Virus record (IMG/VR): IMGVR_UViG_3300008116_000076
Source: a virus
DNA length: 64,000 nucleotides
Strand: one strand, 5' to 3'
Position 1 is the first letter of the stretch, and each line of letters begins with the position of its first letter. Below the pieces are notes generated by a model. That model saw only the letters and a list, made by a program, of their open reading frames with translations. It ran no database searches and was not told the origin of the DNA. A program made the position numbers and the translations under genes. Positions 6,883 through 41,235 of this stretch are shown here, piece by piece.

Positions 6883-7605
6883 ATGGCTACGAATTTTTTC
6901 TTTAATAACTTCCAAGCTTCACAGGAACAGTTACTACTCGAAAATCTAGTTATTGAGTCAATAAAAATTTATGGCCATGATGTATACTATATTCCACGCA
7001 AACTAAACAACTATGATTCAGTTTATGGTGCTGATGATGTTTCATCATATGAACAAGCTATTCCTATTGAAATGTATATTAAATCAATTGATGGATTCAC
7101 TGGAGATGGTGAATTCTTGTCAAAATTTGGTATTGAAATCAGAAATCAAGTTATCTTTTCAATAGCACGAAGAATATTCTCAGAAGAAATTGGAACAATA
7201 ACAACACAAGTCAGACCTAATGAAGGCGACTTGATTTATTTTCCATTAAACCAGAGATTGTTTGTTATTCGTTTTGTTGACAAGTATGAAATGTTCTATC
7301 AATTAGGCGCTCTACAAACATGGTCAGTAACAACAGAAGTATTTGAATATGCCGGTGAAAAGTTTAGTACTGGTATTGAAGAAATAGATTCTATTCAGAC
7401 CAAGTTTAGCACAGATATTCTTAATTGGAGTATAATGGATGAAGATGGTAATTATCTTCTTGATGAAGAAAGTGATTATCTAATTCTTGAAAATTCAACC
7501 ATTGATGATCTTATTGTTGCTTCTGATAATGATAAAATTCAAGAAGAGTCTGATCTGTTTGTTGATTGGACAGCACAAAATCCATTTACAGAGGAACATA
7601 TTTAA
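6883..7605 (+). CDS. 14: Neck protein gp14
   Basis: ESIKIYGHDVYYIPR, RPNEGDLIYFP motifs; synteny. Confidence 0.92.
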   Translation: MATNFFFNNFQASQEQLLLENLVIESIKIYGHDVYYIPRKLNNYDSVYGADDVSSYEQAIPIEMYIKSIDGFTGDGEFLSKFGIEIRNQVIFSIARRIFSEEIGTITTQVRPNEGDLIYFPLNQRLFVIRFVDKYEMFYQLGALQTWSVTTEVFEYAGEKFSTGIEEIDSIQTKFSTDILNWSIMDEDGNYLLDEESDYLILENSTIDDLIVASDNDKIQEESDLFVDWTAQNPFTEEHI

Positions 7606-28202: not shown

Positions 28203-28580
28203 ATGAGCAATATGTATCAAGATGTTAAGGATTTTCAATTGGCCGTTGGACAGAATGTAGGTGAAACACCAGCGTTTCCTGATGGACCAGAACGTGCATT
28301 ACGTATGCGTTTGCTAGAAGAAGAATTTAACGAATATCAAAAGGGTGAATATAATAATGATTTGGAGAATATTGCTAAGGAGCTTGCTGATATTATTTAC
28401 ATTGTTTGTGGTACTGCTGTATCCTATGGAATCCCTCTTGACAAAGTATTTAACGCCGTCCACGAAAGCAACATGGCAAAATTAGTAGATGGAAAGCCAA
28501 TTCGTAGAGAAGATGGGAAGATTTTGAAGCCAGAAGGCTGGACACCACCGGATATTAAAAAAGTTCTTTATGGAGTTTAA
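28203..28580 (+). CDS. MazG-like NTP pyrophosphohydrolase
   Basis: LLEEEFNE..KELADIIY..VHESNMAK..GKILKP. Confidence 0.85.
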   Translation: MSNMYQDVKDFQLAVGQNVGETPAFPDGPERALRMRLLEEEFNEYQKGEYNNDLENIAKELADIIYIVCGTAVSYGIPLDKVFNAVHESNMAKLVDGKPIRREDGKILKPEGWTPPDIKKVLYGV

Positions 28581-31849: not shown

Positions 31850-32247
31850 ATGAATATTTGGAATCTTTAATTGAAGTTAGAATAGCCGAAGAAGAAGATT
31901 TTCTTAAGATTAAAGAAACACTTACTAGAATTGGCGTCGCATCCCGTAAAGAGAAAAAGCTTTATCAATCTTGCCATATATTTCATAAGCAGGGCAAGTA
32001 TTATATTGTTCATTTTAAAGAAATGTTTATTATTGATGGAAAGCCATCTAATTTTTCTGATGAAGATAAGGGTAGAAGAAATAAGATAGCCAATCTTCTA
32101 CAGGAATGGGGTTTACTTAAAATAGTAAATTCTGAAATGACAGAAGAACCAATGGCCTCTATGAGTCAAATTAAGATCATCAATCATAAAGAAAAGAATG
32201 ATTGGGTTCTTGAATCAAAGTATAATATGGGTAGAAAAAAGAAGTAA
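31846..32247 (+). CDS. regA: Translational repressor RegA
   Basis: FLKIKETLTRIGVAS..LYQSCHIFHKQGKYYIVHFKE. Confidence 0.96.
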   Translation: MNEYLESLIEVRIAEEEDFLKIKETLTRIGVASRKEKKLYQSCHIFHKQGKYYIVHFKEMFIIDGKPSNFSDEDKGRRNKIANLLQEWGLLKIVNSEMTEEPMASMSQIKIINHKEKNDWVLESKYNMGRKKK

Positions 32248-33311: not shown

Positions 33312-33450
33312 TAACATTTAAAAGGGTACAGGCTCGTGCGGGCGATGCGCAGTAAAACTGACGCCCAAACCTTGTGTGACCGGAAGCCATTGTGTCTTGC
33401 AAGCAAACAATGGTAGGAAGCATAGTAAACCTGTATCCTTCTAAGTGTTA
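33312..33450 (+). ncRNA. Structured RNA of unknown family
   Basis: Closing helix TAACATTTA..AAGGGTACAGG / CCTGTATCCTT..TAAGTGTTA; internal stems GGGCG/CGCCC and CCATTGT/ACAATGG. Confidence 0.6.
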
Positions 33451-33453
33451 TAT

Positions 33454-33527
33454 TGTCCCGTAGCACAACGGTAGTGCAAACGACTGATAATCGTTAGATA
33501 TAAGTTCGATTCTTGTCGGGACAACCA
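33454..33527 (+). tRNA. tRNA-Ile(GAU)
   Basis: Cloverleaf, loop CT-GAT-AA, CCA end. Confidence 0.9.
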
Positions 33528-33582
33528 TAAAAAAGAGTTTGACTTTGTCGCTCTTTCAGGTTATATTAAGTGTGTAAGTTAC

Positions 33583-33659
33583 GGAGCGGTCTTCTAATTG
33601 GTTAGGAACCCAGACTTTCAATCTGTGCAATGCGAGTTCGAATCTCGTCCGCTCTACCA
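33583..33659 (+). tRNA. tRNA-Glu(UUC)
   Basis: Loop CT-TTC-AA, TTCGAAT, CCA. Confidence 0.9.
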
Positions 33660-33664
33660 AACAT

Positions 33665-33740
33665 GGATCCGTAGCACAATAGGTGGTGCAAGGGACTTTT
33701 AATCCCAAGGCTGTCGGTTCGAGCCCGACCGGATCCTCCA
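33665..33740 (+). tRNA. tRNA-Lys(UUU)
   Basis: Loop CT-TTT-AA, CCA. Confidence 0.9.
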
Positions 33741-33744
33741 ATAT

Positions 33745-33821
33745 GGCTCGTGGGTCAGCATGGTGAAGACGCCTGCCTGTCACGCAGGAGATGAGGGGAT
33801 CGTTACCCCTACGAGTCGCCA
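33745..33821 (+). tRNA. tRNA-Asp(GUC)
   Basis: Loop CT-GTC-AC; variant T-loop ATCGTTA; CCA. Confidence 0.88.
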
Positions 33822-33840
33822 TTTACTGGAGATGTGAAAA

Positions 33841-34035
33841 GTGAAAACTAATGAAATTGCCACTGCCTTTCTAGGACTGACTTATCTAGTTGTTATACCT
33901 ACACTTGTGGTAGGTTGGATCTTCAATGTAATGTCTATCTGGCACACAATGGATGGCTCATTGACGGCGAAGCTAATCCTTCGTTGTATCGGTGTCTTTG
34001 TGTTCCCGGTTGGTGGTATTCTGGGATATCTGTAA
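33841..34035 (+). CDS. Small membrane protein
   Basis: Two hydrophobic helices, ILRCIGVFVFPVGGILGYL; GGAG RBS. Confidence 0.65.
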   Translation: MKTNEIATAFLGLTYLVVIPTLVVGWIFNVMSIWHTMDGSLTAKLILRCIGVFVFPVGGILGYL

Positions 34036-34043
34036 GAGTTTAT

Positions 34044-34135
34044 GGGGGTGGGTGTTGGTACACAGGGAGGCCTTATAAGCCTTTCAGCGCCGGATTAGCG
34101 TTCTCGACCTGATTCGATTTCAGGCACCCCTACCA
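34044..34135 (+). tRNA. Atypical tRNA with UAU anticodon (long V-arm, tetraloop D-arm)
   Basis: GGGGGTG/CACCCCT acceptor plus ACCA; loop CT-TAT-AA; T-arm CCTGA-TTCGATT-TCAGG. Confidence 0.7.
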
Positions 34136-34150
34136 ACTTTGGAGCATGTA

Positions 34151-34345
34151 ATGGAAGATGAATCGTTAATAACATCCTTAGCAAAGGATCAAACTAATTT
34201 AATTAATTATATTAAATACTTGGAATCTCTAAAATATAAAAATGAAGTCCATAAACAAGCAATTATAGATTTGACAAATCTTGCCAAGAATATATCTAAT
34301 GCTTGTTTAAGTTTACAATACCGAGGTGGTGGTATTATAGCCTAA
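34151..34345 (+). CDS. Hypothetical protein
   Basis: GGAG RBS; ORF between tRNAs. Confidence 0.45.
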   Translation: MEDESLITSLAKDQTNLINYIKYLESLKYKNEVHKQAIIDLTNLAKNISNACLSLQYRGGGIIA

Positions 34346-34358
34346 TTAATTTAGCTAT

Positions 34359-34448
34359 GGAGAGTTGGCTGAGTGGCCTAAAGCACTCGTTTGCTAAATG
34401 AGCGTAGGAGAAATTCTACCGTGGGTTCGAATCCCACACTCTCCACCA
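34359..34448 (+). tRNA. tRNA-Ser(GCU)
   Basis: Loop TT-GCT-AA, long V-arm, CCA. Confidence 0.9.
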
Positions 34449-34506
34449 AAAAAGTTGTTGATTTGTTTGTTAATATATGGTAATATTACTAAATAGAATA
34501 CGTTTT

Positions 34507-34582
34507 GGGCCAGTAGCTCAGTTGGGAGAGCATCTGATTTGCATTCAGAGGGTCGGGAGTTCGATTCTTCTCTGGTCCACCA
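34507..34582 (+). tRNA. tRNA-Ala(UGC)
   Basis: Loop TT-TGC-AT, G3:U70, ACCA. Confidence 0.92.
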
Positions 34583-34587
34583 AAATA

Positions 34588-34668
34588 GGAGGATGCCGTC
34601 CATGGTGGACAAACAGTCTTGAAAACTGCGGCACCGAAAGGTTGATGGTTCGATTCCTTCATCCTCCG
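34588..34668 (+). tRNA. tRNA-Ser(UGA), possibly 8/4 fold; no encoded CCA
   Basis: GGAGGATG/CATCCTCC; loop CT-TGA-AA; V-arm with GAAA loop. Confidence 0.75.
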
Positions 34669-34678
34669 CAGCTATTTC

Positions 34679-34753
34679 GCTGGTAGGTCGGCAAGATGTC
34701 GAGGCGTTCTCATAAGACGTTAAAGGTTGGTTTGATTCCAACTACCAGCTCCA
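34679..34753 (+). tRNA. tRNA with CAU anticodon (Met/Ile2), divergent
   Basis: GCTGGTA/TACCAGC; loop CT-CAT-AA; CCA. Confidence 0.75.
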
Positions 34754-34835
34754 TGTTTGATCTAGATACACAGCCTTTATGGAGTGTCGTAATGCTAGAC
34801 AACATTCGTCCCAAGGCGTGAGGGACAGCAAGTTT

Positions 34836-34910
34836 TGCGGTCAGGTGGTCCGGAGACCATTCTTGTCTCATAAGCAAGAGAGCCATGTTCGACTCATGGG
34901 TCCGCATCCA
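34836..34910 (+). tRNA. tRNA with CAU anticodon, divergent D-arm
   Basis: TGCGG/CCGCA; loop CT-CAT-AA; TTCGACT; CCA. Confidence 0.75.
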
Positions 34911-34922
34911 AATAACCGTGTT

Positions 34923-35018
34923 TGGCCCGTCACGGTATATAAATCTTCGGGGTGCAAGTAGATAGCGACATTTCGTTCCACCATTTGTTGATACTATCTT
35001 ACCGCTAACGGGCCACCA
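34923..35018 (+). ncRNA. CCA-terminated non-tRNA structured RNA
   Basis: GGCCCGT/ACGGGCC-ACCA stem; CGGTA/TACCG; AGATAG/CTATCT; no T-loop. Confidence 0.55.
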
Positions 35019-35079
35019 GTTATTCAATATTAGGTTTATGGTTATCCTAGTGCACATGGAGTCTCCAAAAAACCATAGG

Positions 35080-35151
35080 GTCTGTGTATAGCTCAGAGGT
35101 AGAGCAGTGGCGGCAGCTAAAGGTTGGGAGTTCGAGTCTCTCTATACAGAC
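35080..35151 (+). ncRNA. Anticodon-less tRNA-like RNA
   Basis: 9-bp acceptor, canonical D- and T-arms, anticodon arm reduced to TGGC-GGCA-GCTA. Confidence 0.65.
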
Positions 35152-35161
35152 TATTTTTTAT

Positions 35162-35239
35162 ATGGGTGTAGCTTAGCCTGGACTAAAGCAACGGTCTCCA
35201 AAACCGTGATCGTGGGTTCGAATCCTACCACCTATGCCA
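35162..35239 (+). tRNA. tRNA-Trp(CCA)
   Basis: Loop CT-CCA-AA, GCCA end. Confidence 0.9.
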
Positions 35240-35246
35240 GTTTTAT

Positions 35247-35322
35247 CTAGGTGTAGCTCAATTGGCAGAGCATCCCGTTTGGGGCGGGAAGGCTGTTGGT
35301 TCAAGTCCAGCCACCTAGACCA
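35247..35322 (+). tRNA. tRNA-Pro(UGG)
   Basis: Loop TT-TGG-GG, C1:G72, ACCA. Confidence 0.9.
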
Positions 35323-35327
35323 GTTAC

Positions 35328-35403
35328 GGTCGGTTAGCTCAGTTGGGAGAGCGTCTGCTTTACACGCAGAATGTCGGCGGTTCGAACCCGTCACCGACTA
35401 CCA
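35328..35403 (+). tRNA. tRNA-Val(UAC)
   Basis: Loop TT-TAC-AC, CCA. Confidence 0.92.
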
Positions 35404-35407
35404 GTTT

Positions 35408-35528
35408 TGTGAGGCAGTATAGTAGGCACGGATGGCTGATGCGTCGGCACATCGAGGTCGGGAGGCTAATGGAGTCGTAACCTTGGGAACCCGTATACTG
35501 AAAAGGGGATGCATACTCGTTCCTCGCA
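35408..35528 (+). ncRNA. GC-rich structured RNA of unknown family
   Basis: TGTGAGG/CCTCGCA closing stem; CAGTATA/TATACTG inner stem; lies between tRNAs. Confidence 0.5.
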
Positions 35529-35537
35529 AATCTATAT

Positions 35538-35614
35538 GCCCCAGTAGTCCAACTGGTAGAGGCGTCGGTCTTAGGAACCGAATGTTGGGAGTTCGAATCT
35601 CTCCTGGGGCACCA
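35538..35614 (+). tRNA. tRNA-Leu(UAG), short V-loop
   Basis: Loop CT-TAG-GA, ACCA. Confidence 0.88.
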
Positions 35615-35624
35615 ATATAAATAT

Positions 35625-35700
35625 GCTTCTCTGGTGTAGCTGATGCGCACGTCTGTCTGAAGAACAGAAGGACTTTGTTTGATTCAAAGGGGAAGCACCA
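35625..35700 (+). tRNA. tRNA-Phe(GAA)
   Basis: Loop CT-GAA-GA, ACCA; preceded by TATAAATA at 35616. Confidence 0.85.
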
Positions 35701-35857
35701 TGAAACTTGTAGCAGGGATTGTAGGTAACACAAAGAAAGTAGAAATATATTGCGAAAGGTCTATTAGACTAAAGGAAAACAGTCTTATAAACCTAGAACC
35801 AGGTGCTTATATAATTGATCTGTTTGTTCCTGTTTTGGTTGTTGTTCAAAATAAAAT

Positions 35858-35934
35858 GCCCTTGTAGCCCAATAGGCAGAGGCAGTTGACTCAAAATCAA
35901 CAAAGTGTCAGTTCGAATCTGACCAAGGGCACCA
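35858..35934 (+). tRNA. tRNA-Leu(CAA), short V-loop
   Basis: Loop CT-CAA-AA, ACCA. Confidence 0.88.
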
Positions 35935-35945
35935 ATATATAACAT

Positions 35946-36022
<77 letters not shown>

Positions 36023-36032
36023 GTTTTTTTAT

Positions 36033-36124
36033 GCGTGAGCGGCAACGGCGGTGGTGTTGCAGCGGACTGTAAATCCGTTCCCTTTGTGGTAACATTGTAG
36101 GTTCGAATCCTACCTCACGCACCA
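36033..36124 (+). tRNA. tRNA-Tyr(GUA)
   Basis: Loop CT-GTA-AA, long V-region, ACCA. Confidence 0.88.
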
Positions 36125-36129
36125 AATTT

Positions 36130-36258
36130 GGGCTGACAAAAACCTATATTTTCTACCCAGAGACAACATGGAATGGCAGTTCTAGTTGGGTTCCTCTGGA
36201 TGCGATATAGGTCCGGTGCATACTAGTTAGATGGGTTCGAATCCCATTCAGTCCACCA
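36130..36258 (+). ncRNA. Mini tmRNA-like / Ala-acceptor tRNA-like RNA
   Basis: GGGCTGA/TCAGTCC-ACCA with G3:U70; T-arm ATGGG-TTCGAAT-CCCAT; no D-arm; long internal helix. Confidence 0.7.
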
Positions 36259-36264
36259 TTTTAT

Positions 36265-36338
36265 TCGGGGATAGTTTAACGGTAAAACTACGGGTTTTGG
36301 CTCCGTCGTTCTTGGTTCGAATCCAGGTCCCCGATCCA
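36265..36338 (+). tRNA. tRNA-Gln(UUG)
   Basis: Loop TT-TTG-GC, U1:A72, CCA. Confidence 0.88.
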
Positions 36339-36339
36339 T

Positions 36340-36414
36340 TCAGGAATAGTTCAATCGGTAGAACAACGGATTCTGACTCCGTTAATCCTGGTTCGAGTCC
36401 AGGTTCCTGATCCA
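36340..36414 (+). tRNA. tRNA-Gln(CUG)
   Basis: Loop TT-CTG-AC, CCA. Confidence 0.88.
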
Positions 36415-36419
36415 GTTTT

Positions 36420-36493
36420 GCTGGCATAGTGTAAAGGTAGCACACGAGATTGTGGATCTTGTAGACTAGGATCGTTACCTAGTGCCAGTACCA
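36420..36493 (+). tRNA. tRNA-His(GUG), alphaproteobacterial type
   Basis: Loop TT-GTG-GA; T at -1, G1:U72, A73. Confidence 0.88.
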
Positions 36494-36502
36494 AAAAAGA
36501 AT

Positions 36503-36530
36503 TTGACTTTGTGACTAAATACGGTATAAT
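36503..36530 (+). promoter_or_regulatory. Sigma70-type promoter
   Basis: TTGACT-16-TATAAT before tRNA-Asn; a similar AAAAGA-TTTGACTTTGT motif occurs at ~33539. Confidence 0.6.
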
Positions 36531-36540
36531 AACACTATAT

Positions 36541-36615
36541 TCCCCGGTAGCTCAATGGTAGAGTAGGTGGCTGTTAACCACTTGGTTATAGGTTCGAGTC
36601 CTGTTCGGGGAGCCA
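36541..36615 (+). tRNA. tRNA-Asn(GUU)
   Basis: Loop CT-GTT-AA, GCCA. Confidence 0.92.
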
Positions 36616-39351: not shown

Positions 39352-39394
39352 AAATTCTGCCACAACGAAATAGTGGGCTAAGTAAAAAAGTTTT

Positions 39395-39792
39395 GGGATC
39401 AGTTCAGCAACTAACTATGCATTGGAGCAAAAAAGTTGATCCCGTTAATTTTAGGATTGTTTCAGCAAACAATAAAGGTAACAAACTTTCAACTTTGTTA
39501 CGCCGACAAATACAATCCTGTTAGTTTTGGGAAGCATACAGCAAACAATTATACTCGGCCCCTGGGCCAAGGTACGCTCATGGTGAGCATTGTTTCCCGT
39601 TGGTTTTAGGATGACTGCCGCAATTAATCTAGGACTTGTAATCCCGTGGTCGTGGGTGCAAATCCCACCCTCTCCACCATCTATGGGGAGGTAGCTCAGT
39701 AGTAGAGCACGTAAAAGTTCATCCTGTTAGTTTTGGTTTGAGTTCCGCAACTATCAAAAATCATACTTGAAATATGACTCAAAGTTCAAACC
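39395..39792 (+). ncRNA. Array of five stem-closed Y-RNA-like units
   Basis: Units 39395-39443, 39453-39519, 39529-39598, 39608-39725, 39735-39792; covarying terminal stems, C(A/C)GCAA at nt 11-16, GTTRRTTTT linkers. Confidence 0.8.
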
Positions 39793-39810
39793 GTAGAAAG
39801 GAAATATAAT

Positions 39811-41235
39811 ATGTCTACTTTTGTTAATGCTGTAAAGAATCAGTCTGCTCGTACCGAAAATGGTATGAAGGCTCTAAAGTCAACTGCTAATCCGCTAGTT
39901 GATCTTTACTTCAACATTGGTGCTTCTCGTGGTAAGGATATCATCCCTGCTTTCGTAGCTGCTTATGTTACTAACAAGGATATTGCAACTCGTATTGCTC
40001 TTTGGGCACGTGATGCTCGTGGTGGTTCTGGCGAACGCAAGATCTTCCGTGATATTTTCCAGTATCTATGTGACAACGATCCTGCACTAGCTGCTCGTAT
40101 TGTGCATAAGGTTCCGGAACTTGGCCGTTGGGATGATCTCCTAACTGCAAAGGGCGATGTTCGTAAGTCTGCTTTCGAGTTTATCCGTGAAGGTTTGTCA
40201 AACCAGAACACTGCTGGACTTGTTGCTAAGTGGATGCCTCGTAAGGGCGAAGTGGCTGCAGAGCTACGTGCATTCCTTGGTATGACTCCAAAGCAGTATC
40301 GTAAGACTCTGGTTAACCTAACCAACGTTGTTGAAACTCCAATGTGTGCGAATAAGTGGGATGAGATTGACTTTAATAAGGTTCCTTCTCTTGCTGCTGC
40401 TCGTTACAAGAAGGCGTTCAACAAGCACTCTGTAAAGTTTGCCGAGTATGTTCAGAAGCTCGTAAAGGGCGAGGATGGCGTAAAGGTTAATGCTGGAGCA
40501 GTTTATCCTTACGATGTTCTGAAGGGTGCTGCTAATCATTATTATATGTCGAGCTACGACGCCACTGAACTTGGACATATCCAGGCGCAGTGGGATGCGC
40601 TTCCTAACTATGTTGGTGATGCTAACATTCTACCACTGGTTGATGTTTCTGGGTCAATGACCTGTCCTGCAGGTGGATATGGATCAAAGAGTGGTGTTAC
40701 TTGTCTAGACGTTGCAGTTTCTCTGGGACTGTATCTTGCTGATAAGAACAAGGGTAAGTTCAAGGATACGTTCTTGACTTTCTCTGAAAATCCAGAATTA
40801 CTGCATCTCAAGGGTAACATTATTCAGAAGATTAACCAGATGGTTAGATCTAAGTGGGCAATGGACACTAATCTACACAAGGCTCTGGACAAGATCCTTA
40901 CTGTAGCAAAGGAAGGTAATGTTCCTCAGGAAGAAATGCCTGACATGCTCCTGATTCTTTCTGATATGCAGTTCAATCAGTGCACTCGTCATGATGATTC
41001 TGCTCATGAGATGATCGCTCGTAAGTATCATGCTGCTGGTTATACTATGCCAAAGGTAGTGTTCTGGAACCTTAATGCTGCTTATGGCAATCAGCCAGTT
41101 AAGTATGATACTTCTGGAGTTGCTCTTGTTTCTGGATTCTCTCCTGCACTGGTTAAGGGTCTAGCAAATGTAGAGAACTTCTCTCCAGAAGCAATTATGC
41201 TTGACACTATAATGAATGAGCGTTATAATTACTGA
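39811..41235 (+). CDS. Ro60/TROVE-related DUF2828-type protein with C-terminal vWA domain
   Basis: RTENG, WARDARGGSGER, GRWDDL, AKWMPR, MIDAS DVSGSM, ILSDMQF, VFWNL, VSGFSP. Confidence 0.8.
   Translation: MSTFVNAVKNQSARTENGMKALKSTANPLVDLYFNIGASRGKDIIPAFVAAYVTNKDIATRIALWARDARGGSGERKIFRDIFQYLCDNDPALAARIVHKVPELGRWDDLLTAKGDVRKSAFEFIREGLSNQNTAGLVAKWMPRKGEVAAELRAFLGMTPKQYRKTLVNLTNVVETPMCANKWDEIDFNKVPSLAAARYKKAFNKHSVKFAEYVQKLVKGEDGVKVNAGAVYPYDVLKGAANHYYMSSYDATELGHIQAQWDALPNYVGDANILPLVDVSGSMTCPAGGYGSKSGVTCLDVAVSLGLYLADKNKGKFKDTFLTFSENPELLHLKGNIIQKINQMVRSKWAMDTNLHKALDKILTVAKEGNVPQEEMPDMLLILSDMQFNQCTRHDDSAHEMIARKYHAAGYTMPKVVFWNLNAAYGNQPVKYDTSGVALVSGFSPALVKGLANVENFSPEAIMLDTIMNERYNY

Follow-up and report, generated by a model that had tools for sequence, protein, structure and literature searches.

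By layout and by genomic setting, the closest known relative of the RNA gene described in this study is the gene for species 1 RNA of bacteriophage T4. That gene, rnaC, is 139 nt long (NC_000866, positions 70908-71046) and is situated where the tRNA cluster of T4 ends. To our knowledge, the species 1 and species 2 RNAs of T4 have been without a known function for fifty years. The function of the species 1 RNA is described as "yet unknown" (PMC9697503). In rnaC, an acceptor-like terminal stem is stacked on a perfect T arm (CCGGG-UUCGAAU-CCCGG), and a long interrupted hairpin with a linker or second hairpin stands instead of the D and anticodon arms. Annotation of phage tRNA clusters usually stops at the tRNAs, the T4 species 1 and 2 RNAs being the one classical exception.

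Other natural tRNA mimics invite comparison. In tmRNA, the long single strand is the 5' one, and helix H2 is directly adjacent to the T stem. Mycobacterium phage DS6A has a TLD-only tmRNA of 83 nt, and a molecule of this kind is said, in passages that cite Mao et al. 2009, to inhibit tmRNA strongly, perhaps through titration of SmpB (PMC4131195, PMC11915505). SmpB binding reportedly depends on contacts between the T-loop and the D-loop (PMC3968760), and aquatic T4-like phages related to the present one often encode a tmRNA (PMC9004378). The YrlA Y RNAs are tRNA-mimicking non-coding RNAs of bacteria and phages, whose ends form a Ro-binding stem and whose tRNA-like module is internal. The stack of acceptor and T arm is a recognition target of RNase P, of the 3'-end and CCA enzymes, of alanyl-tRNA synthetase (AlaRS) and of EF-Tu. 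Within this stack, the G3:U70 pair is the major determinant for AlaRS and minihelices are charged, as Hou and Schimmel in 1988 and Francklyn and Schimmel in 1989 reportedly found.

The DNA analysed here, the window, is a stretch of 64,000 nucleotides (IMGVR_UViG_3300008116_000076) from an uncultured T4-like myovirus with about 35% G+C. Its open reading frames include T4-type portal, major capsid, sheath and terminase proteins, UvsW, gp45/44/62 and RegA. The capsid protein has its best match among cultured phages in Stenotrophomonas phage DLP_6 (69% identity) and is about 62% identical to those of Mosig and Melnitz, phages of Pelagibacter and OM43. A JGI metagenome contig (L139) holds an identical stretch, and the DNA runs in which the window sequence occurs carry mostly freshwater or aquatic labels. 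Downstream of regA, on the + strand, lies a tRNA island (33454-36615) with 21 tRNAs called by ARAGORN and one further tRNA called by Rfam, among them the phage's own tRNA-Ala(UGC) at 34507-34582. The surrounding genes other than tRNAs are regA, those of the clamp and clamp-loader, 2OG-Fe(II) oxygenases, dCMP deaminase and PhoH. The island also has several gaps that are not tRNA. One of them is filled by a 129-nt element that is called neither by ARAGORN nor by Rfam at gathering score.

An earlier note had described this element, at 36130-36258 (+ strand), as a mini tmRNA-like RNA with alanine identity. All the sequence features that it named are present. They are given below with the flanking tRNAs; the relatives mentioned are a homologue in the IMG/VR contig L003, a second type of element exemplified by contig L002, and a possible distant relative in L138.

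36033-36124, + strand: tRNA-Tyr(GUA), the upstream neighbour, called by ARAGORN; its 3' end lies 5 nt before the element
36130-36136, + strand: 5' strand of the acceptor stem, GGGCUGA, with the G3 of G3:U70; identical in L003 and the L002 type
36137-36141, + strand: 5' linker CAAAA, standing where a tRNA has positions 8-9 and its entire D arm; all members keep CAA
36142-36148, + strand: 5' strand of the outer helix, ACCUAUA, pairing with 36206-36212; in L003, three of the seven pairs have both partners replaced
36149-36156, + strand: internal loop 1, 5' side, UUUUCUAC; unchanged in L003, the L002 type keeping a UUCU core
36157-36162, + strand: 5' strand of the middle helix, CCAGAG, pairing with 36194-36199; one pair has both partners replaced
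36164-36188, + strand: inner helix CAAC/GUUG, enclosing a variable apical hairpin; the apex differs in L003 and still pairs
36168-36185, + strand: five-codon frame ATG GAA TGG CAG TTC TAG, inside paired apical sequence; not conserved
36189-36193, + strand: internal loop 2, 3' side, GGUUC; unchanged in L003 and shared with the possible distant relative L138
36194-36199, + strand: 3' strand of the middle helix, CUCUGG, supported by covariation
36200-36205, + strand: internal loop 1, 3' side, AUGCGA; AUGC is kept in all members
36206-36212, + strand: 3' strand of the outer helix, UAUAGGU, supported by covariation
36213-36230, + strand: single-stranded 3' linker of 18 nt, CCGGUGCAUACUAGUUAG; 17 of the 18 nt are identical in L003
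36231-36247, + strand: T arm, with a 5-bp stem AUGGG/CCCAU and the canonical loop UUCGAAU; recognised from sequence and covariation
36248-36254, + strand: 3' strand of the acceptor stem, UCAGUCC, with U70; recognised from sequence
36255-36258, + strand: discriminator A73 and genome-encoded CCA; recognised from sequence
36265-36338, + strand: tRNA-Gln(UUG), the downstream neighbour, called by ARAGORN; it starts 6 nt past the CCA of the element

The upper part of the molecule is that of a tRNA. The acceptor stem GGGCTGA/TCAGTCC has seven base pairs, all of which were checked (G1:C72, G2:C71, G3:U70, C4:G69, U5:A68, G6:C67 and A7:U66), and is followed by A73 and an encoded CCA. The alanine identity proposed earlier is borne out by its whole set of marks: G3:U70, G1:C72, G2:C71 and A73. 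The T arm (ATGGG-TTCGAAT-CCCAT) is perfect, as had been claimed. Like a tRNA-Ala, then, the element has G3:U70, A73, CCA, a 7-bp acceptor, a 5-bp T stem and a loop of the UUCGAAU type; it differs from a tRNA-Ala in its length of 129 nt and in having no D arm, no anticodon arm and no anticodon. The missing D stem noted earlier is plain to see, the 5' linker consisting of CAAAA alone where positions 8-26 of a tRNA would be. The anticodon arm is replaced by the long interrupted helix that the earlier note had drawn (ACCTATA/TATAGGT, CCAGAG/CTCTGG and CAAC/GTTG), a hairpin of 71 nt made of these three helices and an apical helix of 5-6 bp; the helices covary. The folding energy of the element is unremarkable (MFE -39.4 kcal/mol, z = -1.88), and it is conservation with compensatory change, rather than folding energy, that sets the element apart from chance.

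The homologue in L003 (positions 7164-7294) was found by an acceptor-anchored pattern search. The phage that carries it is related to that of the window: gp44/62/regA are syntenic upstream, the same Ro60-like gene lies downstream, and the proteins are 36-71% identical over the shared locus. Between the two elements, seven base pairs differ in both of their partners: three belong to the outer helix, two to the apical stem, and one to each of the middle and inner helices. Of the pair cells, 98.5% are paired; a control in which the partners were slid by 1-3 columns gave 0 compensatory pairs. These counts exclude the covariance-model alignment A3, which contains two ordinary tRNAs. RNAalifold independently gives the same helices. 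The loops and the 5' linker are identical in the two phages, and apart from the single change in the 3' linker the differences are located in the helices and the apex. The L003 element is flanked by tRNA-Arg and tRNA-Gly, again at a spacing of 5-7 nt; since these neighbours are not the Tyr and Gln tRNAs of the window, the element behaves as a separate module. On this comparative evidence, we take the element to be a real, conserved structured RNA gene under selection. The five-codon frame, which had been suspected of being coincidental, proves to be so: L003 has ATG AAT TTA TAA in its place and the L002 type has no ATG there.

The search for homologues in phage tRNA clusters that the earlier note had proposed thus yielded the L003 element, and it yielded a second subfamily as well (L002, L133, L142 and L144). 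This subfamily comes from an unrelated phage and is 121 nt long without its tail. It scores 36-38 bits with model R1, which was built from the window and L003, and the best ordinary tRNA in 0.8 Mb of phage loci falls below it at 33 bits. The L002 type matches the same five-helix plan, with the same acceptor, the CAA linker, the 7-bp outer helix and the T arm. Its core is a UUCU...CUAGA / UUUAG-AUGC loop-helix; the inner hairpin is different and the 3' linker has 13 nt. A comparison of the three distinct sequence types that are known shows compensatory change at 4 of the 7 positions of the outer helix. The 3' tail of the L002 type is ACGC, not ACCA, so that its CCA would need to be added post-transcriptionally. 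A possible more distant relative, judging from shared motifs, is L138, which has the acceptor and a "CUAG-A-[mini hairpin]-GGUUC-CUAG" core in common with the family. Public DNA runs (n=4) added variants from nearer home. A contig of run X7 has a near-identical element in which A13 is replaced by G and the pair is kept as G.U. In a contig of run X5 the 3' 45 nt are kept with one change and the 5' 90 nt are replaced by 95 unalignable letters, and another related contig has 70 unrelated letters where the whole element would be.

The family is rare, which fits a dispensable accessory role. In a blastn search of 50,697 phage records, the element matched T-arm fragments only, with no cultured-phage match beyond the T arm, and an exact 17-mer from the 3' linker occurs in IMG/VR in L003 only. 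In GTDB genomes, the acceptor-anchored pattern retrieved nothing but tRNA-Ala genes with introns, from CPR bacteria and archaea. Model R1 found no further member in 80 loci around related regA genes; as only 15 of 82 loci (the 80 plus the window and L003) hold at least 5 tRNAs, this negative result says little for a true absence.

The most fitting description of the element is that of a new family among phage tRNA-like small RNAs of the T4-species-1 kind. Like rnaC, it is placed within a T4-type tRNA cluster or at its end, has the same orientation as the adjacent genes and is separated from them by a few nt; the layout given above is shared too. The alanine identity set is the difference: the acceptor of rnaC has two U.U mismatches and no G3:U70, its discriminator is U, and no CCA is encoded. 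Homology was not detected, R1 scoring 17.4 bits (E = 0.18) on rnaC, which is within the range of ordinary tRNAs. The present case illustrates that passenger RNAs of tRNA clusters can bear a complete and conserved alanine identity set on a non-decoding body, and this identity offers a concrete handle on what such passengers do, through AlaRS charging and EF-Tu or SmpB binding.

How might such an RNA be made and used? No promoter-like or terminator-like site was seen between the element and either tRNA neighbour. Lying inside a tRNA operon with no such separator, the element is expected to be excised like a tRNA. It would be transcribed within a polycistronic precursor (Leu-Arg-Tyr-element-Gln-Gln-His) and released by host tRNA-processing enzymes, RNase P cutting at G1 and 3' trimming halting at the encoded CCA; these enzymes would recognise the intact coaxial stack of acceptor and T arm, the "top half". 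Through the same top half, with its full alanine identity set, the host alanyl-tRNA synthetase would charge the RNA, and alanylation is on this ground probable. With no D arm and no anticodon, the element cannot decode. One could envision it competing with tRNA-Ala or tmRNA for a factor that recognises their top half, or acting as a decoy for such a factor; candidate targets are AlaRS, EF-Tu, SmpB and host nucleases or transferases directed at tRNA. The conserved hairpin loops and linker point to a second, specific partner, whose likely contact sites would be the loops UUUUCUAC, GGUUC and AUGCGA and the 18-nt 3' linker; the latter may also supply a GG for contact with the T-loop. Candidate partner genes (SmpB, an AlaRS-like protein or a transferase) were not seen among the 30 window ORFs scanned against Pfam. 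Taken together, the view that this conserved phage gene specifies an RNA of about 129 nt that is processed, charged by AlaRS and employed as a non-decoding mimic of tRNA-Ala seems to us about evenly balanced between right and wrong. If the RNA is charged, it would represent a new phage route to tap or jam the host tRNA-Ala and tmRNA machinery, and the few known natural aminoacyl-RNAs that do not decode would be joined by another family.

Some of the same evidence can be read without any charging. Since rnaC has the same plan in the same setting and does without alanine identity, the tRNA-like end of the element could be a processing handle alone. The RNA would then be an uncharged, stable analogue of rnaC, in which the tRNA-like end serves processing and stability (RNase P, 3' trimming) and the hairpin is the working part, binding a protein or acting as a regulator. 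Invariant loops and a nearly invariant 3' linker amid covarying stems are the pattern expected of a recognition site and agree with this idea. However, processing alone has no need of a G.U at exactly 3:70 and an A73, which are found in all members seen (the invariance of the acceptor being partly ascertainment, as both groups of homologues were first found with a pattern requiring it), nor of an encoded CCA, which all but the L002 type possess. Furthermore, the diverged relative of run X5 conserves the top half better than the hairpin. A search of the window and L003 brought no conserved antisense target to light: the 3' linker has no complement within the window, and although 11 nt at the end of regA (32228-32238) are complementary to loop 1, L003 does not keep this site, and chance alone would give about as many such matches. 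We therefore regard the handle explanation as rather improbable, if still worth serious thought; should it be correct, the element would be one more small stable RNA of phages.

The tmRNA connection, which was central to the earlier note, survives in part. What stood is the picture of an RNA that resembles a tRNA and bears alanine marks, lacks a D stem and has a long irregular helix; what did not stand is kinship with tmRNA, for which models, motifs and layout were considered in turn. The Rfam tmRNA models, whose use the note had recommended, lent it no support: RF00023, RF01849-51, RF02544 and RF04321 gave only T-arm fragments, with 7.5-11.6 bits at E <= 10, and RF00023 had no match on the element in a permissive search, in which the fragments over the T arm reached 7.5-8.4 bits. 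The TLD-only tmRNA of DS6A served as positive control for this search. We located this unannotated gene at positions 28478-28560 of JN698994; Rfam misses it at gathering score, and in a permissive search RF00023 aligns with it end to end (34.7 bits, E = 7e-13), the aligned region taking in UGG..CGAC, which is the D-loop analogue, as well as the junction that leads into the T stem. For the tmRNAs of two related phages, Melnitz and Mosig, the scores are 113 and 94 bits, respectively, and these RNAs carry the canonical GGUUCGAC and GGAC marks.

Motifs and layout tell the same story. The D-loop analogue GG..UCGAC, which takes about 12-14 nt in tmRNA, is absent from the element, where the 5-nt CAAAA stands in its place. 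The GGAC(G) junction before the T stem is present in DS6A, Melnitz and two IMG/VR tmRNAs (L011 and L064), and is likewise absent from the element, which has instead an 18-nt linker ending in GUUAG. The linkers of the element, with a length of 5 nt for the 5' one and 18 nt for the 3' one, are the reverse of the tmRNA layout. A tag reading frame with resume codon and stop was not found, the five-codon ATG frame not being conserved. The element does have the acceptor with G3:U70, A and CCA and the T arm of a tmRNA, the acceptor marks belonging to tRNA-Ala as well and so not discriminating between the two. With no model match, both motifs missing and the linkers reversed, membership in the tmRNA family is unsupported. 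As a recognisable tmRNA or mini-tmRNA, the element is rejected, for the models find DS6A and do not find the element, and the D-loop analogue and GGAC are lacking.

A functional variant of the idea asks for less. The element could be a tag-less, TLD-only mini-tmRNA: charged with alanine and bound by SmpB and EF-Tu, it would either enter stalled ribosomes or titrate SmpB, and host trans-translation would be modulated in the way proposed for the DS6A molecule. DS6A provides a precedent for it. Both RNAs are phage-encoded, with a G3:U70 acceptor, an A discriminator, CAA after the acceptor, a T arm, no D stem, a hairpin for the anticodon arm and no usable tag frame; the irregular helix of the element could replace tmRNA helix H2, and the frequency of tmRNA genes among aquatic T4-like relatives fits as well. 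In contrast to the element, the DS6A RNA has retained a D-loop analogue of 14 nt, CAAUGGUGGUCGAC, and has its H2 stem directly next to the T arm. Because the D-loop/T-loop contacts are reportedly needed for SmpB and the motif is missing here, tmRNA-like activity loses its main structural argument. The silence of models that recover DS6A, Melnitz and Mosig, the absent GGAC, the 18 nt that separate the hairpin from the T stem and the lack of smpB among the 30 scanned ORFs weigh in the same direction, and we consider the proposal unlikely.

A different partner is suggested by the neighbourhood. A Ro60-like gene (DUF2828/DUF7788) with a Y-RNA-like array lies 3.5 kb downstream of the element; one unit of the array is a permuted tRNA with a G3:U70 acceptor and CCA, and the Ro60-like proteins of the window and L003 are 68% identical. 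The element might thus belong to the phage's own Ro60-like/Y-RNA system and be bound by the DUF2828/DUF7788 protein, as its company with the Ro60-like gene in both phages, the tRNA mimic in the array before that gene and a weak match to YrlA (RF02553) could suggest. That match scores 19.6 bits, far below the gathering score of 69, and is an artefact in which the T arm of the element is joined to the D arm of tRNA-Gln. The element and the Y-like array have no common motif and no common word of at least 8 nt. Moreover, the topology is opposite to that of the Y RNAs, the ends of the element forming a CCA-tailed acceptor, and the 77-kb contig of the L002 type, which is 57% complete, has no Ro60-like gene. 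A role in the Ro60-like system thus appears very improbable.

That the element is a decayed or insertion-disrupted tRNA-Ala, or a chance arrangement, is hardly credible: metagenomic tRNA-Ala genes, some plain and some with insertions (L127, L129, L135, L137, L141 and L143), do carry the identical acceptor GGGCUGA/UCAGUCC, but those with insertions retain the D and anticodon arms that the element is without, and the element is kept in a phage with proteins 36-71% identical, with compensation in every helix of the hairpin and no change in its loops. The homologues, which the earlier note had thought might expose a decayed tRNA-Ala, thus speak the other way, no remnant of a D arm or anticodon loop being found. 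RF00005 has no match on the element at gathering score or at E <= 10, and the covarying helices form one long hairpin. The own tRNA-Ala acceptors of the two phages, GGGCCAG in the window and GGGGGAT in L003, are unlike the GGGCTGA of the element, which is therefore not a copy of the phage's own tRNA-Ala. An intron-containing tRNA was also considered and rejected, as removal of no segment yields a D arm or an anticodon stem-loop.

Returning to the preferred reading, that of an alanylated, non-decoding mimic, it is tempting to ask whether it extends beyond this family. A looser G3:U70 pattern was run on IMG/VR; among the matches listed, most were adjacent tRNAs or 3' parts of true tmRNAs (L011, L044, L053, L061 and L064). 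Also among the matches listed in the pattern searches were other phage RNAs without a D arm, which have a G3:U70 acceptor, A73 and a T arm, and unrelated interiors. Their occurrence suggests that D-arm-less RNAs of the alanine type are a recurrent theme in phages. We advance more tentatively, as a conjecture with less than an even prospect, that the element, the L002 type and the RNAs of L132, L152, L154 and L196 form a broad, undescribed class of alanine-chargeable, anticodon-less tRNA mimics of phages, in which the alanyl-RNA is the working molecule and the hairpin proper to each family picks the partner. Were this so, the alanyl-RNA could block or redirect ribosome rescue, absorb a host defence enzyme that targets tRNA, or donate alanine to a non-ribosomal acceptor. 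L152, L154 and L196 have a single D-arm-less G3:U70 RNA each, L132 has two or three in tandem beside a tRNA-Ala(GGC), and another such RNA lies just upstream of the L002-type element.

RNAs similar in type to the element (the alanine-type, anticodon-less tRNA-like RNA of the window) occur in several other contigs. Three phage contigs encode further D-arm-less RNAs of 88-120 nt (L196 7789-7876, L152 2012-2122 and L154 3729-3848), each with a G3:U70 acceptor, A73, CCA and a canonical T arm; their interiors are unrelated. In a 2.5-kb lake metagenome contig (L132), several non-canonical tRNA-like RNAs stand in tandem at positions 1-570, followed by a normal tRNA-Ala(GGC). The tandem comprises:

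3' end of one tRNA-like RNA, ending …GUCCACCA
112-nt RNA with acceptor GGGCUGA, as in the element
RNA closed by UUUGGGG/CCCCAAA
105-nt RNA with acceptor GGGGUCG/CGACUCC (G3:U70)

The element's acceptor, GGGCUGA/UCAGUCC, also occurs in tRNA-Ala genes from metagenome contigs and from CPR and archaeal MAGs (L129, L135, L137, L141, L143 and L159-L163), where insertions of 35-60 nt lie within the D arm or the anticodon loop.

In two contigs of the second subfamily, another tRNA-like RNA, about 75 nt long (L144 2255-2332; L002 3530-3605 (-)), lies just upstream of the L002-type element. It combines a G3.U70-type acceptor, GGGCAU/AUGUCC, with the T arm AGCCG-UUCGAUA-CGGCU. In L144 this RNA and the L002-type element both end in ...GUCCACGCA, and in L002 the upstream RNA ends in ...GUCCACUCUG. 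The shared GUCCAC end hints that the two RNAs use a common 3'-processing signal without encoded CCA.

The tRNA island of the window holds other unusual stretches. One is a tRNA-like gene that folds as a cloverleaf and is called by neither ARAGORN nor Rfam:

34679-34753 (+), tRNA-like gene
acceptor: GCUGGUA/UACCAGC (+)
D stem: odd, 6 bp with a 3-nt loop (+)
anticodon loop: CUCAUAA, anticodon CAU (+)
T arm: GUUGG-UUUGAUU-CCAAC (+)
3' end: UCCA (+)

Another is a rod-like hairpin of 95 nt (z = -2.4), which has no T arm:

34924-35018 (+), hairpin; closing stem of 7 bp, GGCCCGU/ACGGGCC, then ACCA

The hairpin recalls the species 2 RNA of T4 and is possibly a further small RNA that the tRNA-processing enzymes mature. 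Two island gaps, 35404-35537 and 33312-33450 (+), are G+C-rich, non-tRNA stretches whose ends pair; folding of the first is no better than that of shuffles (z = -0.3). The phage tRNA-Trp(CCA) at 35162-35239 (+) also has G3.U70 in its acceptor stem, but its discriminator is G73.

As to known phage tmRNAs, the published TLD-only tmRNA of Mycobacterium phage DS6A was located in the gp33-gp34 gap, at 28478-28560 of JN698994 (L157). It is not annotated in that GenBank record, and it was missed by ARAGORN and by Rfam at the gathering score. The gp76 product of the same phage is an RtcB-like RNA ligase. In phage Melnitz, Rfam recovers a glutamine riboswitch (L246 1886-1934) directly after the two-piece tmRNA, an arrangement already published (PMC9004378).

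Five Y-RNA-like units stand in tandem elsewhere in the window:

39391-41235 (+), Y-RNA-like array

The units have terminal stems, CAGCAA/CCGCAA boxes and linkers of the GTTAGTTTT type. Unit 4 contains a permuted tRNA with acceptor GGGGAGG/CCUCUCC (G3:U70), A73 and CCA. Directly downstream of the array lies a DUF2828/DUF7788 (Ro60/TROVE-like) gene, and the same gene, with 68% identity, is present in L003, the contig of a related phage.
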